Shown here one piece after another: positions 25,228-49,966 of a stretch of DNA of 50,753 bases (position 1 is the stretch's first letter; the number at the start of each line of letters is the position of its first letter). Origin of the DNA: an uncultured Planctomycetales bacterium (GTDB lineage Bacteria; Omnitrophota; Gorgyraeia; Gygaellales; JAHJCI01); NCBI GenBank assembly GCA_964592485.1, contig CAZQEY010000010.1, positions 1 to 50,753 on the forward strand, in the 5' to 3' direction. The notes beneath the pieces are model-generated. The model had not been told where the DNA came from, did not search any database, and was given only the letters and a program-made list of their open reading frames with translations. Position numbers and translations under genes: made by a program.

Positions 25228-26346
25228 TTAACAAATACGAGGCAAGGGTTCAGAGGTCAACATATCAAGGATGCGGTCTGTACCCAATGTGGTTTTAAGC
25301 AACACCATACCCCGAGGCTTAGAGACTATCCTGCCTATAATTCGGGCAAATCTTCCGAGCTTCTGCCGCTTAAGATATTTTAAGACACTGTCCGCCGAAT
25401 CAGATTTAACTACCAGAACTGCCTTTCCTTCATTAGCAATGTATAAAGGGTCAATCCCCAATAATTCACTCGCTGCCTTTATCCGACTGGCAATGGGAAT
25501 CTTTGCCTCGTGGACAACAATGCCCAAATTAGCGGCCCGGGCAATTTCATTCAAGGTTGTCGCCAATCCTCCGCGGGTAGGGTCGCGCATAAATTTTATC
25601 CCGCACCTTCTTGCCTTACTGCTATTTTTCCCTCGAGAAGGTGCGGGATTTATTGCCTCATCTTTTAATAAGGGAATCAACAGCTTATCCAGGCTAGCGC
25701 AATCGCTCTTAATATTTAGACCAAAATCCATTCCCTTGCGCTGGGTTAATATGCTTAATCCGTGTTCAGCAATCCTTCCTGTGATGATAATCTTGTCGCC
25801 GACTTCGATATTTTTTATTTTAAAATCCCTGATAACCCTGCCTATACCTGTAGTATTGATAAACAACTTATCGCAGGCTCCCCTCTCTACCACCTTTATA
25901 TCGCCGGTAATAACCTTAACCTGAGAACTCTTAGAGGCAGAAGAGATGGCATTAACCACGCGCTCTAATAATGAATAATCCAGCCCCTCCTCAATAATTA
26001 AGGCCAGGGACAGATAAAGGGGCAAGGCGCCAGAAACTACCAGATCATTTATCGTGCCAGAAACAGCAAGTTTACCAATATCCCCACCGAGGAAAAATAG
26101 GGGATGGACTACAAAGGAATCGGTAGTAAATGCTATTGCCTTATCCCAAACCTTTGGATATCTATAGAGGACTCCGCCACGTGGAAGGGTGAGAGAATTA
26201 TCTTTAAAGTCAATAACTGCGCTATCAGTTAATTTATTTAGCAGCGAATTACTGAATTTGGGCAGGATTAGATCTCTGATTAAATTATGCGTTAACTGAC
26301 CACCGCTTCCATGAGCTAATAGAATCTTCGAATTTTGTTTTATCAT
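25228..26346 (-). CDS. hypE: Hydrogenase maturation protein HypE (carbamoyl dehydratase), with a 17-codon in-frame insertion
   Basis: N-terminal LAHGSGGQL and C-terminal LPRIC. 372 aa versus ~336 aa. The insertion SAPSRGKNSSKARRCG sits where E. coli HypE has no counterpart. Confidence 0.9.
   Translation of the reverse strand: MIKQNSKILLAHGSGGQLTHNLIRDLILPKFSNSLLNKLTDSAVIDFKDNSLTLPRGGVLYRYPKVWDKAIAFTTDSFVVHPLFFLGGDIGKLAVSGTINDLVVSGALPLYLSLALIIEEGLDYSLLERVVNAISSASKSSQVKVITGDIKVVERGACDKLFINTTGIGRVIRDFKIKNIEVGDKIIITGRIAEHGLSILTQRKGMDFGLNIKSDCASLDKLLIPLLKDEAINPAPSRGKNSSKARRCGIKFMRDPTRGGLATTLNEIARAANLGIVVHEAKIPIASRIKAASELLGIDPLYIANEGKAVLVVKSDSADSVLKYLKRQKLGRFARIIGRIVSKPRGMVLLKTTLGTDRILDMLTSEPLPRIC
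25599..25649. repeat. 51 bp palindromic element (ATCCCGCACCTTCT...AGAAGGTGCGGGAT) inserted in-frame within hypE
   Basis: 14 bp perfect arms with a 23 nt loop. Length is divisible by 3. Same core as the elements at 32420, 35554 and 49829. Confidence 0.8.
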
Positions 26347-27478: not shown

Positions 27479-28627
27479 TTAAAGAGAATTCTCTAACGGC
27501 CTGAATCTAAAGTTTTTAAGAAACCCCTCCAGCACCTTAGCGCCCTTATAAAGATAATCGATCTTGATATACTCATTGCTGCTATGCGCACAACCTGAAC
27601 AGCTAAATCCGGTAGCAACTGCAGGAATATTCTTGTTTTGGAAAAAGGTAATTACCGTTGCCCCCTCACAGCCGGCTATCCTTGGCTTTGCTTTTAAAAA
27701 ACTATGCATTGCCTTTTTTAAATACTCCACCAAGGGATGACGGCAATCAATCTGCGTTGGTGGCTGGACTGCTTCAATCTCGATTTTAAATCTCCTGGCA
27801 TAACCCTTGATAATCTTTCTTATATCCTGAATAATCTTGGAAGCAGACATCCCGGGCAAGAATCTTAAATCTAACTCAAACTCACACCAATCAGCAACAA
27901 CATTAACCTTATCTCCGCCGGATATCTTGCCAATATTTATTGTCGGCGGGCGAAGATAGGGATTCTTTTTATAAATAAACTTGTGCGACTTTATTTCTGA
28001 TAAAGCTTTTAACGCCGCATCAATGGCATTTATTCCCTGCCAGGGATAGGCTCCGTGGGCAGACTTTCCTTTAATCTTTACCTTAAGATGAATTAAGCCT
28101 TTTTGCACAACTACAATCTTAAATTCATCTGCATCTAGAATCAGGCCAGCCTGCGGTTTTAATATTCCCTTATCAAGCAGAGGAATAAGGCCGAGGCTTG
28201 AACCGGTCTCTTCATCAGCCGTAGCAGCAAGAATTAAATTATAATCCAAGATGTGTCTTTGTTCAACAAGGCTCTTGATTACCTCTAAGAGCAGTGCCAG
28301 ATTTCCTTTATCATCTGAAGCGCCCCGGCCATAGATACGACCATGCTGCAGCACTGCCCTGAAAGGCGGAAACCTCCAATTATTGCCTGCCGGAACAGTA
28401 TCCAGATGGGGACTTACCAAGAGATTACAATGCCTATTCCTTCCCTTTAAGGTCGCTACCACATTGCTGCGATTCTTTTTAAACTCATAGATTTTTGGCT
28501 TAAGCCCTAGATTCTCTAAATACCTTTTTACAAAACAGGCAATTCGGTATTCATTTCCTGGCGGATTCTCCGAAGGGATACGGATTAACTGCTGTGTTAA
28601 TTTAATCAAATGCTTTTTATCAATCAT
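27479..28627 (-). CDS. M20-family metallohydrolase (ArgE/DapE-like)
   Basis: HLDTVP and GASDDKG motifs. Start overlaps the upstream stop (ATGA). Confidence 0.85.
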   Translation of the reverse strand: MIDKKHLIKLTQQLIRIPSENPPGNEYRIACFVKRYLENLGLKPKIYEFKKNRSNVVATLKGRNRHCNLLVSPHLDTVPAGNNWRFPPFRAVLQHGRIYGRGASDDKGNLALLLEVIKSLVEQRHILDYNLILAATADEETGSSLGLIPLLDKGILKPQAGLILDADEFKIVVVQKGLIHLKVKIKGKSAHGAYPWQGINAIDAALKALSEIKSHKFIYKKNPYLRPPTINIGKISGGDKVNVVADWCEFELDLRFLPGMSASKIIQDIRKIIKGYARRFKIEIEAVQPPTQIDCRHPLVEYLKKAMHSFLKAKPRIAGCEGATVITFFQNKNIPAVATGFSCSGCAHSSNEYIKIDYLYKGAKVLEGFLKNFRFRPLENSL

Positions 28628-31044
28628 TTCTGCTGAAAAATCATCCTTTCCTTAATCTGAGTTGATATGCCCTCAATAAAGGTTTTAAATTTTAAATATT
28701 CCGAAAGCGCAACATATCTTTTTTTTATCTGGGTTCTCTGTTTAAAGCGAAGATGACCATCTTCAAAGTGGTATTCAACACTTAAATCTAACCAAGGATT
28801 GCTTTCCTGAAAATCAGCCGGTAAATACTTTAACTTAACCCCTCGCGGTAAAACCACATCCAACTCAGCCTCCCGAATACTTGGCATTCCTAAATCAATA
28901 GGATATCGCCGCGATTGTTTTGCAATCACTGAAGTATCCAAAAGCGCCAATTGAGGAAATATCCTTAGATTACCGGCCTTAGTCCAATATTCTCGACCAG
29001 AGAAAGAATAATTCAAGATTACATTCTTATTGAGGTCATCTAAATTCTGGATATCATATTTTATTAACCGGGCAGCGGTGGATACCCCTTGGATTGCCTG
29101 CTTGAGGCTTTCGGAGATTGCCTCTTCGGTAGAGTACTTAAGCCAGAGACGCTGACCCGCATCATATAACCCTGTGGTAGCAACCATCTTTTCTGCCTCG
29201 ATTGTTCCATCAGGACTAATCTCCATTTTAAGAATCTGCCTTAGACTATTATGCTGAGCAGAATAGACAGGCGTTGTTTCAATTTGATAACCAGTATCGG
29301 TAAGGATAAAAATCCTTCTTTGCTGGTCATCGGCCGGCAAATTTCCAAAAGAACAGGTTGAGCAGGTAGGGTCAAGAAAGACCAAATCCTCATCTAACTT
29401 GACTACGGCAATACAATGATTAAAATTAACCGAAGGGAAATCTTCTTCTAAGTCAAGATAATCATCCGTGCCGATTAATACCGGGTAGCTCTCAAGGCCA
29501 ATTTCGCGTAACATTGCAACCAGAAGTATCGCCTGGTCCTTGCAATCGCCATATTTATTAAAAAAGATATCAATTGCTTTATGCGGCTCATACCCCGCCT
29601 GACCATATTCTACGGCAACATAGCGGATATCCTCGGCGCTGAAGTTATAGATTGCTCGCGCCTTATCCAGAATTGTTTCCTTATCCTGGGTTAAATCCTT
29701 GACCTTCTGTTTTATTGCTTGATTTACCTGAATTTTATCTTTGGCTAAATTCCACCACCAGTCATAAATCTCCTGCCAGGAATCAAAGGTAGAAATAAGA
29801 ATAATCGGATTAATCTTTGAATTCGAAGGCATATTTGCCTCAGGAATGATTGCCGGGATATCCTTAAATTCCCAAAGATATTCCTTGTATTCTGAATATT
29901 CTTTTACCACCGGCTCTAACTCTGCCTGGAATTTATTGTAATCTGAATTAAAGATTTTGTAGTGCAGTGGTTTTTCTGCCGGAATAACAAACTTAAAGTT
30001 AGCCTGAATAACCGGCTCGAGTTCCTGCAAATGATAAGAAATAACAAGATCGTCTTCATTAATCAATTGATTGCGATAAATTTTGTATTTATATTCGATA
30101 ATACAACCATGGGTAATCTCAGGGAACGAGATTATCCGTGCCCTGGCATTGCTATAAAGGGGAAAATTTAAATATTTAGAAACATCGCGTATATGGCGGC
30201 TACCCACAGGAACAACCACACCATCCGGCAGAATAGTACGCGCATATTCTAACTCTACCTTTTCATAGGTAGAATCATAACTAATCACAATTTCAGAGAA
30301 ATCCTGTTTACCCCGTTCATTTAAAATCTTAATAAGGAGATGTTCGGAAAAGACAGCCGAATTTTGCAGACTGAGTTCGACCTCTTCATCACAAAACAAG
30401 ATTAACGCTCCGGCATTAGGGTATTTTTCCGGCAGAGGAGCAGCTTTAATTATCTCCTGCAGGCTGGGTGATAAATCCTCTAAACGTAAATTCTCCCCTA
30501 ATCGGGTAATTAACTGGATTCGGTTCTGGGCGCGAGTTCTAAATAGCCCCTCATTAATCTGGCGATAAATATCCAAGGCCTGGTCATAGAGATTGAGCTT
30601 TTCGCAAACCTCTCCGTGATAATACAGAGCTTCACTGTCCGGATTATCTATCTTCTTGAATGCATCCCTTGCCTCGGTAAAATTATTAGTCTTATATAAA
30701 GCAAGGGCACGGTATTTTTTTGCCTCGGGGAGAGTTGTCTCTGATAGGTATTGGCTGGCTAATTCATATTCGGCCTGCTGATAATAAAGCAGGCCCAATT
30801 CGAAATAAGCTTGGTCTAAATCCTTGCCTTGGGCAATCAAGTCCTCGTATTTAGCAATGGCACGTTGGTAATAAGCCCGTGATTGCTTAGTATAATCCCG
30901 CGCTTCATCAAGTTTGCTCTTTTGAGTACAACCAGTTGAAAAATTCAAAATACAAAAAGCAAATATTAAAATGATAGACTGGAATTCAAAATTCTTTAAA
31001 AGATTTTTGATTTTTGATTTTCTATTTATATTTATAATACGCAT
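28624..31044 (-). CDS. Secreted or lipoprotein with N-terminal TPR repeats, a DUF3857-like region and a transglutaminase-like cysteine protease core
   Basis: YGDCKDQAILLVAMLREIGL is a TGase-like Cys motif. Start placed at MRIININ (AAGGAG SD); the ORF-track start lies inside hypD. Signal peptide ILIFAFCILNFSTGC. Confidence 0.7.
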   Translation of the reverse strand: MRIININRKSKIKNLLKNFEFQSIILIFAFCILNFSTGCTQKSKLDEARDYTKQSRAYYQRAIAKYEDLIAQGKDLDQAYFELGLLYYQQAEYELASQYLSETTLPEAKKYRALALYKTNNFTEARDAFKKIDNPDSEALYYHGEVCEKLNLYDQALDIYRQINEGLFRTRAQNRIQLITRLGENLRLEDLSPSLQEIIKAAPLPEKYPNAGALILFCDEEVELSLQNSAVFSEHLLIKILNERGKQDFSEIVISYDSTYEKVELEYARTILPDGVVVPVGSRHIRDVSKYLNFPLYSNARARIISFPEITHGCIIEYKYKIYRNQLINEDDLVISYHLQELEPVIQANFKFVIPAEKPLHYKIFNSDYNKFQAELEPVVKEYSEYKEYLWEFKDIPAIIPEANMPSNSKINPIILISTFDSWQEIYDWWWNLAKDKIQVNQAIKQKVKDLTQDKETILDKARAIYNFSAEDIRYVAVEYGQAGYEPHKAIDIFFNKYGDCKDQAILLVAMLREIGLESYPVLIGTDDYLDLEEDFPSVNFNHCIAVVKLDEDLVFLDPTCSTCSFGNLPADDQQRRIFILTDTGYQIETTPVYSAQHNSLRQILKMEISPDGTIEAEKMVATTGLYDAGQRLWLKYSTEEAISESLKQAIQGVSTAARLIKYDIQNLDDLNKNVILNYSFSGREYWTKAGNLRIFPQLALLDTSVIAKQSRRYPIDLGMPSIREAELDVVLPRGVKLKYLPADFQESNPWLDLSVEYHFEDGHLRFKQRTQIKKRYVALSEYLKFKTFIEGISTQIKERMIFQQK

Positions 31045-32161
31045 TACAGGCTCCTTCGCTAGAAACCATGCAGGGACCATAAGGATTTGCAGGGGAACAA
31101 ATCTTGCGAAATAAGGAGCACTCGGGAGGCTGAATTATTCCCTTCAGCACTTCCTTGCAGCGGCATTTCTCAAGTTTTTTGTTTGGTATTTCATATTTTC
31201 CCGTCTTTACATTTCTTGCTATAGCGGGATTCCGCTTGAAACGGGAAATATTAGGAAACACTATTCTTTTGGTCTCGAAACTTGAGAATGCATCCTTTAA
31301 CTCCAATCCACTTTGAGGAATTTCACCGAGTCCCCGCCAGGTAGCATTATCAGTCTTAAAAACCTTGAATATTTCTGCCTTTGCCTTTAGATTTCCCTCC
31401 TTTTTTACCACCCGTATATACTGATTTTCCACGCACGGTTTGTTCTGAATAACTTGACGAAGCAGGAAATAAATCCCCTCCAAGATATCCAAGGGTTCAA
31501 ATCCAGCCACACAGCAGGCAATCTTGTATTTTTTAGGAATAAACTCATATGCCTGGCTGCCGATGATTGTTGAGACATGTCCGGGACAGAGAAATCCGTC
31601 AATCTTAACTTGTCGGTCAAAAACCAATGCCTCCATTGCTGGAGGGATAAGTTTTAAGGCAGAAAAAAAAGAGAGATTGTTTAATCTTTCTTTTTTAGCT
31701 GCCTGCAGCGTAAGAGCTAAGGTCGAGGCAGTAGTCTCAAAGCCTACCGCCAGAAAGATTATCAACTTTTTTGGATTTTTTCTTGCTATACTCAGACTAT
31801 CCCAAGCAGAATAAACAACACGGACATCGCTACCCTCGGCCCTTTTCCTCTCAAGACTCGTGTTTGTCCCTGGTACCCGTAACATATCTCCAAAACTTAA
31901 GATGATTATATCCTTAAACTCGCTTAATTGGATTGCTTTATCAATATAATCCTGGTCAGACACACAAACCGGACACCCGGGCCCGGCAATCAAGTGTAGA
32001 TTCTTGGGAATTAACCTGTCTAAGCCAAAGCGGTGAAAACACTGAGTATGGGTACCGCAAACCTCCATCAGACGAATTGTGGTCTTCGGTATAATCTCAA
32101 ATATTTTCTGAGAAATCCGCTTGATAAGCTCTTTGTTGCGGAACTCATCAATAAATTTCAT
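31022..32161 (-). CDS. hypD: Hydrogenase maturation protein HypD
   Basis: MKFIDEFR N-terminus, MEVCGTHT, GPGCPVCV. Start placed at the ATG; the ORF track uses a TTG. Confidence 0.9.
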   Translation of the reverse strand: MKFIDEFRNKELIKRISQKIFEIIPKTTIRLMEVCGTHTQCFHRFGLDRLIPKNLHLIAGPGCPVCVSDQDYIDKAIQLSEFKDIIILSFGDMLRVPGTNTSLERKRAEGSDVRVVYSAWDSLSIARKNPKKLIIFLAVGFETTASTLALTLQAAKKERLNNLSFFSALKLIPPAMEALVFDRQVKIDGFLCPGHVSTIIGSQAYEFIPKKYKIACCVAGFEPLDILEGIYFLLRQVIQNKPCVENQYIRVVKKEGNLKAKAEIFKVFKTDNATWRGLGEIPQSGLELKDAFSSFETKRIVFPNISRFKRNPAIARNVKTGKYEIPNKKLEKCRCKEVLKGIIQPPECSLFRKICSPANPYGPCMVSSEGACNAYYKYK

Positions 32162-32381: not shown

Positions 32382-32522
32382 TTCAATTCGCCCGCCAAAG
32401 TTCTGTGGCGGGCGAATTGAACCCCGCACCTTTTTCCTACGAAGCAACTCTGCACAGTAGAAAGGTGCGGGGTTAATTCCGACTTACAACTTATGTCCTT
32501 TGAATAAACTCAGGACATAAGT
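32382..32522 (-). promoter_or_regulatory. Three consecutive strong hairpins in the hypC leader: a 15 bp TTCAATTCGCCCGCC hairpin, a 14 bp AACCCCGCACCTTT hairpin and an 11 bp ACTTATGTCCT hairpin
   Basis: Perfect inverted repeats at 32382-32421, 32420-32474 and 32489-32522. Confidence 0.7.
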
Positions 32523-35537: not shown

Positions 35538-35553
35538 AAGACAACAGACAATT

Positions 35554-35632
35554 CGCCCCGCACCTTTTCTTTATTCTTCTGGTTTTTATTTACAAATTTA
35601 ACTATATTTGAACATCAAGAAGGTGCGGGGCG
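35554..35632. repeat. Palindromic element copy (CGCCCCGCACCTT...AAGGTGCGGGGCG, ~53 nt loop) between acyP and the phosphoesterase gene
   Basis: 13 bp arms with compensatory flanking CG. Starts 2 nt after the acyP stop. Confidence 0.75.
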
Positions 35633-35633
35633 A

Positions 35634-35906
35634 TTAAAATCTTATTCCAAAATCTCTAAATTCTCCAGTTGGCTCCTGCCATTGAATATCTGCAGCCTGA
35701 ATGTAACTGCGAAAATATTGCTCAATGCGAGAAAGAAAATCCTTTAATACCGACTCCTCTGCCTCGGCAACCAACTCAACTTGACCACCGCGCAGGTTCC
35801 TTACCCAACCAGTAACTCTTGAATCCCGGGCCAAATCTTCAGTAGTAAAGCGAAAACCAACTCCCTGAACCCTACCTGAATAAAATACATGAATGCGTCT
35901 TAACAT
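35634..35906 (-). CDS. acyP: Acylphosphatase (stand-alone)
   Basis: GRVQGVGFR and GWVRNLRGGQVE signatures; 90 aa. Confidence 0.85.
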   Translation of the reverse strand: MLRRIHVFYSGRVQGVGFRFTTEDLARDSRVTGWVRNLRGGQVELVAEAEESVLKDFLSRIEQYFRSYIQAADIQWQEPTGEFRDFGIRF

Positions 35907-40200: not shown

Positions 40201-42017
40201 GCCTTTATCCTTTCGGCAATACCCTTAGACGTTAATCCGTAATTCTCTAATAATATATCTCGACTACCATGAGGAATAAACTCATCAGGCAATCCCAGCC
40301 GATAAACCGGCCTACCCAAAACCTCCTGCACTGCTGAACCGAATCCGCCACTGGCTATTCCTTCCTCAACAGTAAAAATAATCTTTGTTTTTATGTTATT
40401 TAATAAATCTGCATCCAAAGGCTTAAGAAAGCGGGAATTAATCACTGAGCAAGAAACCCCTTCCTTTTCTAATAAATCCGCTGCCTCCAGGCTGGACAGA
40501 ACCATAGAACCTAAAGCAACTAAACTCACGTCCTTGCCCTCTTTTAAAACCTCTGCCTTACCTAATTGTAAGGGGCTGGCAGCCGGGCCGGCAGACAACA
40601 GGCAATCGGATTTTGGATACCTTATTGCCACCGGCTTATTCAGATTCAAAGCAAACTCAAGCATCTCTTCTAATTCCCGACCATCCTTCGGAGCCATTGT
40701 CACCAAATTAGGGACACTCCTTAGATAAACAAGGTCAAATACGCCTTGATGGGTTACTCCGTCTGCACCGACAATCCCCGCGCGGTCAATTGCTAAAACC
40801 AGACCTAAATTCTGCAGAGCCACCCCTTCAATAATCTGGTCATAAGCCCGCTGGAGAAATGTAGAATAGATTGCTACTACTGGTTTAAGCCCGCCGTGGG
40901 CAAGTCCTATAGCAAAACAGACTGCATGCGACTCTGCGATACCCACATCAAAAAATCTGTCAGGATAAGCATCGCGGAATTTGTCTAAACCTGTGCCTTC
41001 GGGCATAGCGGCAGTAATTGCTACAACACGGGGATTATCCTTGGCTAACTCAACTAATTTATCACTGAAAATCCCTGTATAGGTTTTGACACCAGAATCT
41101 TTCCTGCGGGCTTGACCAGTAGGAATATCAAAAGGAACCGCGCTGTGAAATCTTATTGGCTGCTCCTCTGCTGGAGAATATCCTTTGCCTTTAACAGTTA
41201 CCAGGTGTAACAGGCGCGGGCCAGAAAGTTTAAGGATATTCTTTAAGGCCGGGATAAGTGTCTCAAGGTTATGGCCATCTAAGGGCCCAAAATAACGGAA
41301 TCCTAGTTCCTCAAAGAACATGCCCGGCACAAATAAACCCTTAATTGCCTCTTCAAACTTATCCACTATCTTTAAAATGCGCTGACCCCGAGGAATGCGT
41401 GTCTTTAGTAGATTATCTACTGCATTACGAAAACGGTTATATATCGGCAGCGAAATAATCTTATTAAGATACTTACTCAACGCCCCGGCGTTGGGGGCGA
41501 TGCTCAGTTCGTTTGTATTTAAAATCACCAACAGATTGCATTTCAGCTGTCCGACATTATTCAGACCCTCAAAACAAAGTCCGTTGCTTAAAGAGCCGTC
41601 GCCAATTACGGCAACTGTTTCAACCTGGGGATTGCCTACTGCTAACCCCAGGGCAAGAGATATCGCTGTACCGCTATGCCCGGTAACAAAGACATCGTAG
41701 GCTGACTCTTCAGGATTAGGAAATCCGCTTAAACCCCCGTATTGGCGCAGCGAGGAAAATTGTTTATTTCTGCCGGTTAAGATTTTATGAGTATAAGATT
41801 GGTGACCCACATCCCAAACAATCTTATCTTCAGGCATATTCAAACAATAATGCAAAGCCAGGGTTAATTCTACTACGCCGAGGCTGGAAGCAAGATGTCC
41901 TCCGGTTGAAGCCACCACTTCAATAATGCGTAGACGAACCTCCTCAGCGAGTCTAGAAAGCTGACTGACCTTTAACCTTTTTAGATCCTGGGGCGAATCA
42001 ATCTTTTCCAAATACAT
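40188..42017 (-). CDS. dxs: 1-deoxy-D-xylulose-5-phosphate synthase
   Basis: GHSGTAIS and GDGSLSNG TPP motifs; 609 aa. Confidence 0.95.
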   Translation of the reverse strand: MYLEKIDSPQDLKRLKVSQLSRLAEEVRLRIIEVVASTGGHLASSLGVVELTLALHYCLNMPEDKIVWDVGHQSYTHKILTGRNKQFSSLRQYGGLSGFPNPEESAYDVFVTGHSGTAISLALGLAVGNPQVETVAVIGDGSLSNGLCFEGLNNVGQLKCNLLVILNTNELSIAPNAGALSKYLNKIISLPIYNRFRNAVDNLLKTRIPRGQRILKIVDKFEEAIKGLFVPGMFFEELGFRYFGPLDGHNLETLIPALKNILKLSGPRLLHLVTVKGKGYSPAEEQPIRFHSAVPFDIPTGQARRKDSGVKTYTGIFSDKLVELAKDNPRVVAITAAMPEGTGLDKFRDAYPDRFFDVGIAESHAVCFAIGLAHGGLKPVVAIYSTFLQRAYDQIIEGVALQNLGLVLAIDRAGIVGADGVTHQGVFDLVYLRSVPNLVTMAPKDGRELEEMLEFALNLNKPVAIRYPKSDCLLSAGPAASPLQLGKAEVLKEGKDVSLVALGSMVLSSLEAADLLEKEGVSCSVINSRFLKPLDADLLNNIKTKIIFTVEEGIASGGFGSAVQEVLGRPVYRLGLPDEFIPHGSRDILLENYGLTSKGIAERIKACPE

Positions 42018-42189
42018 AATCTTGATGTTTTACTTTCACCTTTAGTCGCTTTTGAACGAGACTTGCTAAGTGAAGTTCATCTTTAATTCGTCAACTTGAG
42101 AAGTAGTATAGTATAACTTGAGATTATTTTTAACATGACTGCCACTATTAATTTTCTGACTTTCTTCAACTTAACGGATTCAATACAAA

Positions 42190-42380
42190 GTTCACTTAGT
42201 AAGCTAAGCTTATATCCAGCTGAAGGCTGGAGTAAAACATTAATCTCTACTAAATCTTTGGGAGAATCAATCTTTTCCAGATACATAATTTTGTAAGCTA
42301 AGCTTTTATCCAGCGGAAGGCTGGAGCAAAACATTAATCTCTACTAAATTCTTGGGAGAATTAATCTTTTCCGGATATAT
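42190..42380. repeat. Tandem ~93 bp duplication that includes the dxs translation start (MYLEKIDSP) and an upstream CCAGC-TGAAG-GCTGG hairpin
   Basis: Units at 42200-42290 and 42293-42380 plus the native copy at 41990-42020. Creates the artefactual 83-aa ORF 42083-42334. Confidence 0.85.
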
Positions 42381-42615
42381 CTTGATTTTCCTCTTCGGGC
42401 TGGAATTCCTCAGTAATCTCGATTCCTTGTTTTTTTACCAATTTCTCTACTCTTGCCTTTGCCTCTCTTAACATTTTGGAGCAATTCCTGGATAATTCAA
42501 TGCCCTCCTCATATTTCTTAAGTGCTTCATCGAGTGAAAGATTGCCTTCCTCTAAATCCTTAACTATCCTTTCCAATTTTTTTAAAGATTTCTCAAAATC
42601 TATTGTCTTTGACAT
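42361..42615 (-). CDS. xseB: Exodeoxyribonuclease VII small subunit
   Basis: LSLDEALKKYEEGIELSRNC; GGAGGT SD. Confidence 0.9.
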   Translation of the reverse strand: MSKTIDFEKSLKKLERIVKDLEEGNLSLDEALKKYEEGIELSRNCSKMLREAKARVEKLVKKQGIEITEEFQPEEENQDISGKD

Positions 42616-42674
42616 AGGATTTTACCTCCAGTTTATTTTTTACCATAAAGGCTCAAAGTCACAGAGTTTTTTAA

Positions 42675-42790
42675 GAAAACTTTGTAACCACAGATAAACA
42701 CAGGTAAACACTGTTAAATTTTCATAATAAAAATACGAAAGTCTTTTTCTTTCTTCTGTGTTCATCTGTGGTTTATGCTTTCTTATGCTT
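42675..42790. mobile_element. MITE-like element copy 1 with terminal inverted repeats (AACCACAGATAAACAC...GTGTTCATCTGTGGTT), between xseA and xseB
   Basis: Ends are conserved with copy 2 (46289-46405); the internal sequence differs. An extra partial end CCTCTGTGGTT lies at 42827-42842. Confidence 0.7.
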
Positions 42791-42847
42791 TAAGATTTTC
42801 TTTTTCTCTGTGTCCCCTACGTCTCCGTACCTCTGTGGTTTTTTCTT

Positions 42848-44152
42848 CTAAGAATCTATCTGAGTCACTTCAGATTGAAAACTGCCTTTGGCTAATTTTG
42901 TATTTACTCGATCACCCTTTTTAAGGGAACTGGCCTTTAGAATAATCTTGCCATCTATGCTCGTAGTTAAACTGAAGCCGCGAGATAAAATCGCCAGCGG
43001 ATTAAGTGCCTGATATTTTCCGATGACCGCAGCCAGCCTCTGCTCAGTTAAATGAATAAGATGCTGAATTACTAGAGACGCGGAGTGCGTCAAGCTATCG
43101 GTATCCTGCTGAAATTCCTCAATCTTCTGTAATGGATGCTTAAACGCGGGGCTGGTAGAAAGCAGATTGAATCTTTGTTTTAAATCATTGCTTTTTTCTC
43201 TGATTAAGTTAACCAGCAATAACTGGCTCTGCTCCAATAGCTTTAGTATCTCGTTCTTCTTGTTCACAAATAATTTGGCTGCCGCTGTGGGAGTCTCCAC
43301 ACGCAAATCAGCAACTAAATCAGCGATGGTAGTATCGACCTCATGACCTACCGCAGATATAACTGGAATCTTAGAATTAAATATTGCCCGGGCAACAATC
43401 TCTTCATTAAACGCCCAGAGGTCTTCAAGACTGCCGCCCCCTCGGCCAATAATCAAAACATCAACCTGAGAATATTCGTTAAATTCGGCGATGCCTAAAG
43501 CAATATCATATTTCGCCTGTTCACCTTGCACAACCGTTGGCCGCACAACAATGCGTAAGAATTTCACCTCCCTATTTAGGATTTTAAGAATATCCTCGAC
43601 TGCCGCACCGGTTGCTGAGGTAATGATGCCTACGGAAAATGGCATCAGGGGTATGGGTTTTTTACGGGCCACATCGAATAATCCCTCTTTGAATAATTTA
43701 TCTTTGAGTTGCTCAAATGCCAATTGCAAAGAACCAATTCCCTTAGGCTCAATCTTCTCAATGACTACCTGATACTGCCCGCGTTTTCCGTATACAGTAA
43801 TGCGTCCAAAACAAATTACCTTTAACCCATCTTCTAATTTAAATTTTAAAGTCTGATTCACATTCTTAAATAAACAAGCATTAATTATCGCATTTTCATC
43901 TTTGAGGGAAAAATACATATGGCCGGACAAATGATGGGTAAAGTTGGAAATCTCCGCCTCCAGCCAAATTGAAGAAAGGTTATTCTCCAGGATTAATTTT
44001 ATATCCTGGGTTAACTCACTTACCGTATAGATATGTTGAGTCGAATATTTATCTCGCACCTTCCCTTGTAACGGGGCCGCCCGGGAAGATAGAGAAATGC
44101 GGGATTTATCATCTAATTGGGATTGTTTATTTAAATTGATTCGCGTAGGCAT
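42848..44152 (-). CDS. xseA: Exodeoxyribonuclease VII large subunit
   Basis: OB-fold N-terminus IYTVSELT...; length and architecture typical. Confidence 0.9.
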   Translation of the reverse strand: MPTRINLNKQSQLDDKSRISLSSRAAPLQGKVRDKYSTQHIYTVSELTQDIKLILENNLSSIWLEAEISNFTHHLSGHMYFSLKDENAIINACLFKNVNQTLKFKLEDGLKVICFGRITVYGKRGQYQVVIEKIEPKGIGSLQLAFEQLKDKLFKEGLFDVARKKPIPLMPFSVGIITSATGAAVEDILKILNREVKFLRIVVRPTVVQGEQAKYDIALGIAEFNEYSQVDVLIIGRGGGSLEDLWAFNEEIVARAIFNSKIPVISAVGHEVDTTIADLVADLRVETPTAAAKLFVNKKNEILKLLEQSQLLLVNLIREKSNDLKQRFNLLSTSPAFKHPLQKIEEFQQDTDSLTHSASLVIQHLIHLTEQRLAAVIGKYQALNPLAILSRGFSLTTSIDGKIILKASSLKKGDRVNTKLAKGSFQSEVTQIDS

Positions 44153-44478
44153 TCCTGAACAACATTCTCAATTCTTGAGCGGTCGGGTTCTTGGATATCG
44201 ATAAATTCGATTCCCGTATCAAAATTACCCCCTCTTCGAAGCGCCCAAGCAATCCTCCCATTACACTCTATAGGAACTCCTCCATCCTTTAAATAAAGAA
44301 GAATCTCCACAGGACAAGACTGAGGCAATGCCTTGGATAGAACTACGCAAATTCCTCCTGCACCTATATTTTCGGTATGAGTAGAGAAAACATGTTTTAA
44401 ATCACTTCTTAAAACAACAACCTTGCATGGATAATCTGCGCGCGGAAACCGGCGCCTATTAATGCTATTCCGCCTCAT
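44131..44478 (-). CDS. PilZ-domain (c-di-GMP binding) protein
   Basis: RRFPRADYP (RxxxR) and NIGAGGICV (D/NxSxGG-like). Start at MRRNSI, which has an AAGGAG SD. Confidence 0.65.
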   Translation of the reverse strand: MRRNSINRRRFPRADYPCKVVVLRSDLKHVFSTHTENIGAGGICVVLSKALPQSCPVEILLYLKDGGVPIECNGRIAWALRRGGNFDTGIEFIDIQEPDRSRIENVVQECLRESI

Positions 44479-46390
44479 CTTGCCCTGCTCCTTTCTTCTG
44501 GCCTTCATTAGGTTTTTCCCCTATCGGCTCTTCAGGCTTAATCGGGGTTACTTGCTCCGCCTCTTCAACCTCCACAGAGACTTCTGGTTTTTTATCCATC
44601 ACAATCAAGACCACTGAATACGGCTCCAAAATTAAGGTCTCCTTATAGGTAGTAACATCCTTAATCTCTTTTTCTTCTCGCGGCATAAATGCGCAATCCA
44701 ATCGGCAGGATTTATCTACGATATATTTTTTATAGATATAATCATCCTTAAGATTGGTCAAATTTAAATTTATATTCTGAGACTGGGTAATCAAGGATTT
44801 CGCCATTTTATTTAAAGTAATTGCCTCTTCAATCTTTGCCTTTATCCTTTTGTCTAAGCGCAAGGTTTTTAGAGGAATCTCTGAATTTTTAATCCTCTCC
44901 CATTTATCGGAATGTATTAAATTTACCAATATTCTTGCCAATCTGGGGTGCAATTCAGCCAGATGTCGAGAAAGATAATCCCTGGCAAGCCTGGGGTCAA
45001 TATATTTGAACAAAAATAAGGCGAGGCCTGTTTCTGTCTTGGTGGCAATTATGCCGACAAATTCATCATCCAGGCGCGAGGCAATAAACATCTCGCTACC
45101 CAGCATATTGAGCATACTAATTACATTAAACATCGATTTTGCTCCGCCGGTGTATTTGACATGCTCCGACTCAAACCAGAATAAGCCGACATTTCGATTT
45201 ACCCCTTGTTTATTATTTTTAAAATCCTCCAGGCAAAAGAATATTTGATAATCAATGCCTGACTTTAGCATATTCCTTATCCGGCTGGGGATAAAGCTGG
45301 CAGCGACATAAGACTCCCAGCCTCGCTTGGGTTCAAAGTTTAACCCCGTATCGTAGTTCCATTCACTAATAATTAGAGGTATAGTTGAGTCTAGGCCAAA
45401 ATACGAAAGCCATTCGCGAATAAGTTTTGGAACTATATTTTTATAACAGGTAATTTCACTTTCGGCCAATGGGTCGCTGGTATAGGCATGCCAGCTAATA
45501 AAGTCCAGAGGAAGTCCCTGTTGAGAACAGAAGCGAATAAATTCGTAGATAAGGCTTTCTTCGGGATAGAAAACGGTATTGCCTTCCAAATTCTGGAACC
45601 ACCATGTTACTGCCGGGCCGCCGATGCGAATGTCACGGTTAGTCTCTTTTTCTAATTCCTTTACGCTCTGGGCTACTGCTTGATAAATATTGAGATATTC
45701 TTTTTTCTGCCCTAAAAAGAAATCGTCCGAATCCGGAGCGTTCCATATCTCGTACCAGATATCATAACCCTTCTCGCAACTCAAATAGCGGATAATATGC
45801 TTAACCAGCTCCTTGAACGCGCCGATATCCCAGGGGGAACTTTTCTTATCCAAGACCTTACCTAAGCCCGGAGGCATACCATACAAATTCAAAAGAATGA
45901 TTCCTCCAGCCGAATTTATATTTTTAATCACTGTCGAATAGTTTTCCAGAAATTCGGCCTGCATCTCTTTATCCTTAGCCAGTTGGATAAACTCCCAAAG
46001 GTCAAACTGTAAATGAAAAATACCTCCGCTCAAATCAAGACGTTCGTTGAGTTGGGCTAATACTTCGGGCGCAGCCAAGTTCTGCGGCCAGGTCGGCTGA
46101 TAATGAAACCCCCGGCCGCTTAAATCTATGCCTGGCTTTCTAAGAAGATTCGGCGTTGGTTTTGTCTTACCGGTTATATCCAAGTTGAAATCGATATCGT
46201 TACCTTGAGCGAAAGTAAAATCGCCTATAAAATTCAAAATGCAAAATGCAAATATAAGAATAAAAAAACAAAATCCAGATATTTTTAAAAAATCTTTGCA
46301 ACCACAGATAAACACGGGTAAACACTGCTTAGCATAGAGAATGCTATAAATACCGACCGCTTTTCTCCTCTTGTGTTTATCTGTGTTCAT
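44465..46390 (-). CDS. Secreted TIM-barrel glycoside-hydrolase-like protein with an acidic low-complexity C-terminal tail. The N-terminal ~35 codons, including the ATG, are supplied by MITE-like copy 2.
   Basis: IWYEIWNAPD resembles the GH5/GH39 NEP motif region. Signal peptide ILIFAFCILNFIGDFTFAQ. Start uncertain. Confidence 0.55.
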   Translation of the reverse strand: MNTDKHKRRKAVGIYSILYAKQCLPVFICGCKDFLKISGFCFFILIFAFCILNFIGDFTFAQGNDIDFNLDITGKTKPTPNLLRKPGIDLSGRGFHYQPTWPQNLAAPEVLAQLNERLDLSGGIFHLQFDLWEFIQLAKDKEMQAEFLENYSTVIKNINSAGGIILLNLYGMPPGLGKVLDKKSSPWDIGAFKELVKHIIRYLSCEKGYDIWYEIWNAPDSDDFFLGQKKEYLNIYQAVAQSVKELEKETNRDIRIGGPAVTWWFQNLEGNTVFYPEESLIYEFIRFCSQQGLPLDFISWHAYTSDPLAESEITCYKNIVPKLIREWLSYFGLDSTIPLIISEWNYDTGLNFEPKRGWESYVAASFIPSRIRNMLKSGIDYQIFFCLEDFKNNKQGVNRNVGLFWFESEHVKYTGGAKSMFNVISMLNMLGSEMFIASRLDDEFVGIIATKTETGLALFLFKYIDPRLARDYLSRHLAELHPRLARILVNLIHSDKWERIKNSEIPLKTLRLDKRIKAKIEEAITLNKMAKSLITQSQNINLNLTNLKDDYIYKKYIVDKSCRLDCAFMPREEKEIKDVTTYKETLILEPYSVVLIVMDKKPEVSVEVEEAEQVTPIKPEEPIGEKPNEGQKKGAGQDEAE

Positions 46391-46405
46391 CTGTGGTTTA
46401 TGCTT
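46289..46405. mobile_element. MITE-like element copy 2 (same termini as copy 1), overlapping the 5' end of the GH-like ORF
   Basis: AACCACAGATAAACACGGGTAAACACTG...GTGTTTATCTGTGTTCATCTGTGGTTTATGC. Confidence 0.7.
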
Positions 46406-46429
46406 TTAATTGGAACCTTGATATACGAA

Positions 46430-47203: not shown

Positions 47204-47331
47204 CTTTTCGTAACTCGTAATTAAAAACTCTAATCAGTAAATTGTAAATAGTAATTTTTAAAAATGGGTTGTGAATTGCGAATCAATTACTAGTTACGAG
47301 TTACTAACGTACTAGTTACTATTCTTTATTA

Positions 47332-48885: not shown

Positions 48886-49057
48886 TTTATCAAAACCTCC
48901 TTTCCTTATTATAAACTGAGATTGAATTTTAAGCAAGCCCCGTTAGGAATTTTTATTTGACGTATTAGCAAGCAGTATTTCTAACGGGAGTCTAGTTATA
49001 ACTTTTTATTAACCTTTGGAATTCAGTTGAAACAATAAAGAGGAGATCTTTGTCCAA

Positions 49058-49285
49058 GCTTTAGCCTCAGCTAAAGTCAGGTATTGTTTCGGGCTGAACT
49101 TCGATTGAGACTAAACTTTGATCAAAGGCTTTGCTCAAACTCCAGCCTCAGCTAAAGCGCTGCTTTAAGCTTAAACTTCAGTCAAGACTAAACTTTGATC
49201 AAAGGCTTTGCTCAAACTTTAACCTCAGCTAAAGTAAAATATTGTTTTAGGCTGAACTTTGGTTGAGGCTAAACTTTGATCAAAG
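49058..49285. repeat. About 3 tandem copies of a 68-83 bp unit, each containing palindromes CTTTAGCCTCAGCTAAAG and CTTTGATCAAAG, in the long rny leader
   Basis: CTTTGATCAAAG at 49116, 49193 and 49274. CCTCAGCTAAAG occurs three times. Confidence 0.8.
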
Positions 49286-49287
49286 AA

Positions 49288-49854
49288 TTAAGCGGAGAGG
49301 ACTTTATCTACTGGCATATCAATTTGCTCGACGGGTAAGTGCGGCAAGATTTGGAAGTCAAAGGCCAAACCAATGGAATGCGTACGTTGGGGTAACCCTT
49401 TTAGGAAGCGGTCATAATACCCTTTACCTCGCCCCAGGCGATTCCCTTTCTTATCAAACGCAAGGGCGGGCACAATCACCAAATCCAATTCATCAACAGA
49501 CAAATCAATCTTAGTTTGGGGTTCCAATGTTTGGTATGGCCCTTTATCTAATTTGCTATCTTCCATCAAAATACATGGCTTCAAGGCCTTCTGTTTAGTA
49601 TCGCATACAGGAACAAAAATCTCTTTACTAAGGCCCCTTGCCTTATTAATCATGCTTTCTGTGTTTACCTCTCCGTCAAAAGCTAGATAAAACATTATCC
49701 TCTCTGCTTTAATAAATTCCTCCTGTTTTAAAAGTTTCTCTTCAATCAGCTTGCTTTTTTGCTTACGCTCCTGCTCCGTTTGTTGTTTTAATCTATTTAT
49801 CAATATATTACGTAATTGCCTCTTTGTCAACCCCGCACCTTTTTGAAAATTCAT
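49288..49854 (-). CDS. 5-formyltetrahydrofolate cyclo-ligase
   Basis: GRGKGYYDR motif; 188 aa. Confidence 0.85.
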   Translation of the reverse strand: MNFQKGAGLTKRQLRNILINRLKQQTEQERKQKSKLIEEKLLKQEEFIKAERIMFYLAFDGEVNTESMINKARGLSKEIFVPVCDTKQKALKPCILMEDSKLDKGPYQTLEPQTKIDLSVDELDLVIVPALAFDKKGNRLGRGKGYYDRFLKGLPQRTHSIGLAFDFQILPHLPVEQIDMPVDKVLSA

Positions 49855-49952
49855 TTTTTAATTATTGTCTTGAACCCGCCCTCTTAAAAGGTACGGAATG
49901 AATATTACCCAAAATCCACCAATAATATTTTAATACGTAAAAGGTGCGGGGT
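49829..49952. repeat. Palindromic element copy (AACCCCGCACCTTTT...AAAAGGTGCGGGGT, ~95 nt loop) spanning the 5-FCL start codon
   Basis: Left arm lies within codons 5-9 (KGAGL). Right arm is 15 nt after the upstream gene stop. Confidence 0.75.
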
Positions 49953-49966
49953 CAAGTTTTCGCTCA

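Follow-up and report, generated by a model that had tools for sequence, protein, structure and literature searches.

The window, the whole 50.7-kb stretch of DNA analyzed here (50,753 nucleotides of a contig assigned to Candidatus Omnitrophota), contains a row of genes in the order rny, ymdB, a GH39-like gene, a PilZ gene, xseA, xseB, and dxs, all on the minus strand. Two short hairpin elements, copy 1 at the xseA-xseB junction and copy 2 at the ymdB-GH39 junction, are located in the same orientation within this row. Pfam supported the identities of XseA, XseB, PilZ, GH39, and YmdB, so that the gene names of the original prediction (xseA, xseB, PilZ, and a glycoside hydrolase-like gene) were borne out. 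The hairpin proper of copy 1 comprises 88 nt at 42686..42773 (-), with the 5' arm AACCACAGATGAACACAG, a 52-nt loop, and the 3' arm CAGTGTTTACCTGTGTTTATCTGTGGTT; the arms are 18 nt long and 94% complementary. Copy 2 comprises 99 nt at 46300..46398 (-), read on the transcribed strand, with the 5' arm AACCACAGATGAACACAGATAAACAC, a 47-nt loop, and the 3' arm GTGTTTACCCGTGTTTATCTGTGGTT, and its 26-nt arms are 88% complementary. The loops of the two copies are about 60% alike. Beyond forming inverted repeats, the arms consist of 10-nt units in tandem (AACCACAGAT RAACACRGRT AAACAC), a feature that the original prediction had missed. A derived CACRGGT unit is common to both copies, and the similarity between the copies continues outside the inverted repeats, for 9 to 12 nt at one end and for about 31 nt at the other.

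The 16-mer AACCACAGATAAACAC, with up to 3 mismatches, matched eight times in the window, seven of these inside the two copies, compared to 0.39 matches expected by chance, and a count of eight was reached in none of 100 shuffles. An arm profile built from other genomes matched exactly the four arms of copies 1 and 2 (E values of 4e-8 to 7e-5) and no further arm in the window. Folded as RNA, copy 1 yielded -40.2 kcal/mol (z-score -5.7) and copy 2 -40.3 kcal/mol (z-score -5.0), and when both strands of both copies were folded, the z-scores against shuffled sequence ranged from -5.0 to -6.3. The excess of 16-mer matches, the four-arm profile match, and the fold z-scores together confirmed the presence of two inverted-repeat copies at these two places, as had been predicted. 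A scan for promoters and terminators revealed no such signal in the elements. Rfam 15 at gathering thresholds reported only two tRNAs and no match to the elements, and a permissive Rfam scan of both copies gave chance-level matches only, with E values of at least 0.24. No rRNA was found in the window, and the copies are located at gene junctions, not at helix 25 or 45 of 23S rRNA. A single arm without a partner, AACCACAGAGGTACGGAGACGTAGGGGACACAGAG at 42806..42840 (-), belongs to a sibling type of hairpin and is located 8 nt past the xseA stop codon; its CACAGAG/CACGGAG type also adjoins CACAGAT hairpins in two other loci (L026 and L097).

A family scan of one genome per species with AACCACAGATRAACAC as the query identified arms of the window type in at least 120 genome loci of many phyla. 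The next decamer followed in 128 of the 144 scan matches, for which the chance expectation is 1/64, and 75 of the 144 had an inverted partner not more than 300 nt away. The hosts were Planctomycetota, Acidobacteriota, Verrucomicrobiota, Nitrospirota, Cyanobacteria, Chloroflexota, NC10, Bacteroidota, and others, with Nostoc, Calothrix, and Cylindrospermum as cyanobacterial hosts among the listed matches. Several copies per genome occur elsewhere, for instance in a metagenome-assembled genome (MAG) of a Thermoguttaceae bacterium (L026, L052, and L100), and L033 contains three. Of 55 matches found in viral contigs, 35 were family members, with four in one 50-kb contig, and the family is also present on plasmids, e.g., in the fmd operon of the Thiodictyon plasmid pTs485. 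On this plasmid of a cultured strain, a CACAGAT hairpin and a sibling of the CGCAAATGAA type are located between formylmethanofuran dehydrogenase genes (L258, 2500-2640 and 4575-4860), and neither carries an annotation in the RefSeq record.

The 77 complete elements had a median length of 89 nt, and the most common arm was exactly 30 nt long, equal to three units; most family members are 60- to 100-bp hairpins with such 30-nt arms. The family arm can be described as up to three 10-nt direct repeats with the consensus AACCACAGAT GAACACAGAT RAACACAGAT, followed by a variable loop of 4 to about 200 nt, in which other hairpin families are often nested. Nesting also occurs in the other direction, as in L021, with a CACAGAT hairpin in the loop of a CACCAAGG hairpin. 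Sibling types have the same architecture and are built from other units: CACAGAG/CACGGAG, CGCAAATGAA, and CGCGGAT. Conservation of the flanks across the family covers about 6 nt only, A-rich on the 5' side and T-rich on the 3' side. We would class these elements as small palindromic selfish repeats. The best joint explanation of the data, with a probability of roughly 75%, is a very widespread family of palindromic selfish elements, of which both window copies are members without an open reading frame (ORF). A repeat of this kind interrupts assemblies, gives rise to spurious small ORFs, and displaces annotated start codons.

The original prediction had described the copies as nonautonomous elements resembling miniature inverted-repeat transposable elements (MITEs) and had proposed that their direct orientation around 3.5 kb of intervening genes forms a composite or mobilizable unit. 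The elements indeed have inverted-repeat ends, are noncoding, and at 88 and 99 nt are far below the limit of about 600 bp; they belong to a dispersed family and are absent from these sites in relatives. This part of the assignment stands, but the MITE definition fails on two counts, target-site duplication and a transposase-bearing relative. No direct repeat of at least 3 nt was found at offsets 0 to 5 in 65 members, 2-mers occurred at about chance frequency, and no duplication is present in the window, where the copy flanks differ (TTGT/TTGC versus TATG). No transposase was found between arm pairs 0.7 to 3 kb apart in about 1.2 Mb of loci. Ordinary host genes lie between these distant arms, which indicates that such pairings are due to chance, and the only coding version of the element encodes a GxxExxY nuclease, as described below.

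Gene order in relatives bears on the composite unit directly. Relatives were collected through GH39 homologues, which gave close ones, and through a metagenome scan with xseA, which reached not more than 52% identity and provided synteny, not close empty sites. Synteny with the bracketed genes was seen in seven loci (L150, L134, L122, L253, L254, L255, and L259), and five of these (L150, L253, L254, L255, and L259) keep the order rny-ymdB-GH39-(PilZ)-xseA-xseB-dxs, with GH39 proteins 49 to 81% identical to that of the window, or 73 to 81% in the four closer ones (all except L150). None of the five carries a CACAGAT arm. The ymdB-GH39 junction, which holds copy 2 in the window, ranges in the relatives from an overlap to 50 nt. 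The xseA-xseB junction measures 1 to 15 nt, or 108 nt in L255, compared to the 232 nt in the window that hold copy 1. Both element sites are empty in L150, L253, L254, and L259; L255 likewise has no insert between ymdB and GH39, and an unrelated hairpin occupies its xseA-xseB spacer. Presence-absence polymorphism of the elements at orthologous sites was found in this way: the insertions are recent, and the lineage of this Omnitrophota contig acquired them at positions where relatives have compact junctions without an insert.

Since the gene order is conserved and the junctions are element free in the relatives, the 3.5-kb segment is ancestral and not a composite unit. The genes between the copies, xseA, PilZ, and the region for the mature GH39-like protein at 42848..46282 (-), are host genes according to Pfam and synteny and not a cargo; they have the same place and order in relatives that lack the elements, and the elements themselves are noncoding. 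The predicted splitting of the xseA-xseB pair did not hold either, because both genes are still adjacent and only their spacer is longer. Two classical MITEs of a DDE-transposase family, which together mobilize xseA, PilZ, and GH39, would agree with the small size, the terminal inverted repeats, the noncoding interior, and the direct orientation. Such an assignment is nevertheless very improbable given the missing duplications and transposases, at least five relatives with the same gene order but no elements, and a copy 1 that derives from copy 2, host flanks included, and is not an independent insertion.

The spacers of this operon contain further repeats. In other Omnitrophota-like relatives, unrelated hairpin repeats fill the same spacers, xseA-xseB, the one after xseB, and rny-ymdB (L145, 3489-3545 and 3784-3858; L255, 5010-5110; L254, 5020-5210). 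The occurrence of different, unrelated hairpins in the same spacers shows that these junctions have been colonized repeatedly. The rny-ymdB spacer of the window, 128 nt long compared to 2 nt in L253, contains a hairpin at 47236-47305 with arms of tandem 7- to 8-nt units (AGTAACTCGTAACTAGTAATT / AATTACTATTTACAATTTACT), and a further half arm is located just upstream of the ymdB ATG. In a Candidatus Ratteibacteria MAG (L113, 2364-2395), a solo CACAGAT arm directly follows the rny stop codon, and its last unit merges into the ymdB start codon (CACAG ATG AAG); the CACAGGT variant of the window copies occurs there as well.

Copy 2 determines where translation of the GH39-like gene may start. The NCBI call for this gene, P0121, comprises 641 aa (44465-46390) and begins at an ATG at 46388..46390 (-) in the 5' arm of copy 2, which reads CAG ATG AAC ACA GAT and encodes M-N-T-D. 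This is the only in-frame ATG upstream of the signal peptide. The prediction that copy 2 provides the start of the ORF, including its only ATG, was right in this respect, but an in-frame GTG at 46313..46315 (-) in the 3' arm, 25 codons past the ATG, had been overlooked; as an alternative start, this codon would yield MFICGCKDFLKISGF... before the signal peptide. The N terminus MNTDKHK... is absent from all 26 GH39 homologues with 62 to 81% identity. On the 3' side, the tail of copy 2 (GCAAAGATTTTTTAAAAATATCTGGATTTTG, 46269..46299, -) is native 5' coding sequence of GH39 (KDFLKISGF) and aligns in frame to AAAAATGTTTTAAAAATATTCAAATTTTG of L254 (KNVLKIFKF). On the 5' side, the stretch from the ymdB stop codon to the arm (46399..46429, -) is a remnant of the ancestral GH39 start without its ATG: this flank, AATTAAAAGCATA, matches AATTAAAATCATA of L254, which represents codons 3 to 7 of the GH39 gene in that relative. 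After removal of copy 2, the window sequence aligns with L254 over the GH39 start, and AAGGTT occupies the position of the L254 ATG.

These alignments indicate that copy 2 was inserted into the 5' coding end of the ancestral GH39 gene, within the n-region of the signal peptide. As judged from sequence, GH39 has lost its own ATG and can now start only at the copy 2 ATG (46390) or GTG (46315); with the element inside the ancestral 5' coding region and the native ATG gone, the start depends on one of these two codons of the arms. For annotation, this means that the 641-aa model P0121 begins in a repeat, which is the most useful local result, and that its first 31 residues are element derived. The GH39-like signal peptide shares ILIFAFCILNF with an unrelated lipoprotein (ORF 28624-31080), and the corresponding 85-nt stretches, 30925-31009 and 46214-46298, are 71% identical.

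Copy 1, within the 232-nt spacer, has flanks that resemble those of copy 2. Its 3' tail (ACAAAGTTTTCTTAAAAAACTCTGTGACTTTG, 42654..42685, -) is noncoding and a diverged duplicate of the copy 2 tail that is native to GH39. The best local alignment of the two tails covers 40 columns and extends beyond 42654-42685; the segment ending in TTTG is identical in 25 of 31 positions with one gap. The 5' flank of copy 1 (TTAAAGCATAAGAAAGCATAA, 42774..42793, -) repeats the copy 2 flank AAAGCATAA in a tandemly duplicated form. Because both of its flanks are GH39 native, copy 1 looks like a later copy of about 150 nt, composed of copy 2 plus flanks, that was placed 3.6 kb downstream in the xseA-xseB spacer.

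A local segmental duplication is the best account of the origin of copy 1, and this part of the scenario that had been named as a refutation of the original prediction agrees with the data. It can be extended to the claim that nothing here is mobile and that one odd palindrome was merely copied locally, for which the common GH39-native flanks and other tandem duplications in the same spacer region, such as the triplicated 5' end of dxs, can be cited. As a complete account, this is refuted and hardly deserves any weight, since the same arms with inverted-repeat ends are abundant elsewhere, in at least 120 unrelated loci across phyla plus viral contigs and plasmids, and copy 2 itself is missing from the orthologous site in relatives. 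Concerning dxs, its first 40 to 90 nt (ATGTATYTGGAAAAGATTGATTC...) are present three times in tandem at 41982-42387. These copies fill the 345-nt xseB-dxs spacer, which measures 0 to 103 nt in relatives, and the xseB C terminus enters the last copy.

A candidate enzyme for the family was found in longer elements. Cassettes of about 430 bp (420 to 460 bp) have the same arms and enclose a single ORF in the loop that encodes a GxxExxY protein (TIGR04256, E value 1e-43; PF13366), a member of the PD-(D/E)XK nuclease family with about 120 aa. GxxExxY/PDDEXK_3 has been listed as a family of unknown function (PMC3424549). All seven examined GxxExxY genes were bracketed by arms, four of four in loci selected by arm sequence and three of three in loci selected by the protein. 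The three protein-selected cassettes were located within operons and co-oriented with their neighbors, which encode an ABC transporter in one case, a xanthine dehydrogenase in another, and a peptidase/exporter row in the third. The GxxExxY start codon is often located in the arm, again as CAG ATG AAC ACA GAT (MNTD), and among the best 120 of 7,549 homologous clusters, 61 had an arm-encoded MNTD or MDTD start. Residues D66, E76, and K78 (D...ExK) are conserved. A sequence search of PDB with the protein gave no informative match, and a fold search retrieved generic PD-(D/E)XK nucleases; the structural model (mean predicted local distance difference test, pLDDT, of 93.6) resembles Cas4, RecB-type, and Hjc nucleases. 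A generic search for inverted repeats that enclose small ORFs of other kinds did not bring up another clear type of cassette. The most interesting general lead of this analysis is the association of the arms with the GxxExxY nuclease.

Evaluation of the arms needs to consider whether pairing or sequence has been conserved. The mismatches in the stems are mostly A/G transitions at degenerate positions, G.U did not outnumber A.C on the sense strand (34 versus 44) in a test for selection at the RNA level, and the conserved CACRGAT core recurs every 10 bp. Together, this indicates that the sequence motif rather than the pairing appears to be conserved. The reading frames of the arms are asymmetric. 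Read inward, stop codons close at least two frames in 74% of 114 arms compared to 30% after shuffling; read outward, 85% of the 114 arms contain no stop compared to 33% after shuffling. Upstream ORFs that run into an arm often terminate at its nucleotide 10, 20, or 30. The contexts of the family members were tandem in 28, convergent in 8, and divergent in 7 cases, about the genomic proportions, which argues against a role as a terminator.

These data bear on the possibility that the hairpins are functional RNA structures of the host operons, such as RNase III sites, mRNA stabilizers, or attenuators, retained for regulation instead of being selfish. Both copies have the same orientation within a co-directional gene row, and the predicted folds of their 18- to 26-bp stems are much more stable than those of shuffled sequence (z-scores of -5.0 to -6.3). 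Correia elements are processed by RNase III. Intervening sequences of rRNA with the same architecture are also cut by RNase III (PMC4990558). A host function is nevertheless unlikely: in close relatives, this operon has junctions of about 0 to 50 nt and no hairpin, no Rfam family and no terminator- or promoter-like signal was assigned to the elements, the arms vary independently at the R positions without a G.U preference on the sense strand, and the contexts follow the genomic proportions. Alternatively, the decamer arrays may be binding sites of a host DNA-binding protein, a regulator or nucleoid protein, recruited to promoters or spacers. Strict 10-bp phasing of the CACRGAT core and its conservation as sequence instead of pairing agree with such binding sites. 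Near-identical arms in Cyanobacteria, Planctomycetota, and Omnitrophota would, however, require a universally conserved partner, and to our knowledge, none exists for such arms. Selfish DNA agrees better with the close association with a small nuclease gene, with the nesting in other hairpins, and with the occurrence in viral contigs, so that an origin as host binding sites is scarcely credible.

For selfish palindromic elements, a route of movement can be suggested from the arms and the cassettes. The six phased decamers of an element would be protein-binding sites on one face of the helix, and their likeliest binding partner would be the GxxExxY nuclease acting in trans. With a nuclease acting in trans, the short hairpins would be nonautonomous derivatives. 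Read inward, the arms stop two or three frames by TGA or TAA and usually contain an ATG, which may allow an insertion at gene boundaries within operons to be tolerated; the stop/start asymmetry of the arms would make such boundary insertions tolerable and explain the new start of GH39. In polycistronic RNA, an 18- to 26-bp stem would form from each copy, a plausible RNase III substrate by analogy to rRNA intervening sequences and Correia elements.

In its broadest form, this leads to a tentative proposal, possible but clearly less probable than the family assignment itself: the window copies may be decayed members of an undescribed cross-phylum class of cassettes resembling intervening sequences, in which the 120-aa GxxExxY nuclease reads the phased decamers in both arms and mobilizes its own cassette of about 430 bp as well as ORF-less hairpins without a target duplication. 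The arms would close reading frames and offer ATGs, so that the element could settle at gene boundaries in operons and even take over a gene start as in GH39, and the intervening sequence of 23S rRNA would be a special case. If this family-level interpretation is true, it would provide an identity and a candidate enzyme for a very common small repeat of environmental bacteria.

Several points weigh against the selfish-cassette interpretation. The 50.7-kb window contains no GxxExxY gene, and the two copies were counted in this window only, which is the covered part of the genome. The family loci were chosen by arm sequence, which makes the nuclease-arm link partly circular, so that it is carried mainly by the three protein-selected loci and the N-terminal statistics. 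The host flanks of copy 1 point to imprecise or recombinational copying rather than precise transposition. The family was found neither in Rfam nor in the open-access literature, in agreement with the prediction of an undescribed family, but the absence of the arm sequences refers to the open-access full text that was searched, and an earlier description may exist.

Other repeats and contig ends were also noted. A second hairpin family has four window copies, at about 25580-25648, 32418-32476, 35552-35634, and 49827-49953, with the arms CCCCGCACCTTTT / AAAAGGTGCGGGG and loops of about 30 to about 100 nt. Upstream of rny, at positions 49047-49286, a sequence of about 77 nt is repeated both in tandem and in inverted orientation (CTTTGATCAAAGGCTTTGCTCAAAC...AGCCTCAGCTAAAG). 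Two independent short Logan contigs of the same organism (SRR14802574) have an end at the elements, with L001 ending in copy 2 and L249 starting in copy 1, one of these ends in the loop and the other a few nucleotides before the arm. A drop in coverage or heterogeneity of the loops are possible reasons, but no conclusion is drawn from the contig ends, given that a typical k-mer is longer than these repeats.

Small palindromic repeats with some of these features occur in several bacterial groups. Correia elements (NEMIS/CREE) of Neisseria are noncoding, 100 to 150 bp long, located between genes, and co-transcribed; they have inverted-repeat ends, form long hairpins that are cut by RNase III, and can give expression signals to neighboring genes. 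The elements described here are likewise short noncoding inverted-repeat inserts between genes. Correia elements have a TA target duplication and a site for IHF and are restricted to Neisseria, whereas the present family has no duplication, possesses decamer-array arms, and is distributed over many phyla. Rickettsia palindromic elements, found only in Rickettsia, insert in frame within genes. As in those cases, a small palindrome inserted into a protein gene, copy 2 in GH39, has become part of an ORF, but copy 2 replaces the start of the gene and adds no internal peptide. The cyanobacterial STRR hairpins, reportedly the subject of Elhai et al. in 2008, are said to be very small mobile repeats with arms of short tandem repeats and mutual nesting; their units are reportedly heptamers, confined to cyanobacteria and reported without an associated gene. 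Tandem-unit arms, nesting, and occurrence in Nostocales are shared with the present family, whereas the repeat units differ, being decamers here.

Short extragenic palindromic repeats (REPs) without a target duplication and their nonautonomous hairpin doublets (REPINs) are linked to RAYT, a single-copy HUH (IS200-like) gene flanked by inverted REPs, and REPs are imperfect palindromes with a conserved tetranucleotide (PMC3116915). Common to both systems are the missing target duplication, nonautonomous hairpins, and a gene located between inverted copies of the repeats. The family arm, however, is a tandem CACRGATRAA array that is not self-complementary, and the flanked gene encodes a PD-(D/E)XK nuclease with thousands of protein clusters. 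No RAYT gene was found in the window, and none was flanked by arms in the examined loci. An identity as REP or REPIN was rejected because the arm units are not palindromic and no RAYT was seen in the window or between arms in these loci.

By analogy of architecture, the closest known system is the intervening sequence (IVS) of 23S rRNA. The IVS of Coxiella burnetii comprises 428 nt and contains the S23p ORF, and ORF-less IVSs occur in Salmonella and Campylobacter (PMC4990558). The ends of an IVS are complementary and pair into a stem of about 28 bp, with short direct repeats in the stem region of the Coxiella IVS; the sporadic distribution of IVSs suggests horizontal transfer, and their mechanism of movement is unknown (PMC4990558). 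The window copies differ by their location in an mRNA spacer and at the 5' end of a gene instead of helix 25 or 45 of 23S rRNA, the arm sequences are unrelated, and the family ORF encodes a GxxExxY PD-(D/E)XK nuclease compared to the four-helix bundle of S23p. Both systems share a form of about 430 nt with one ORF, ORF-less forms of about 100 nt, a long terminal stem, and short direct repeats in this stem. If the family-level interpretation is true, the long-unexplained intervening sequences of rRNA would be tied to a broader class of hairpin cassettes.

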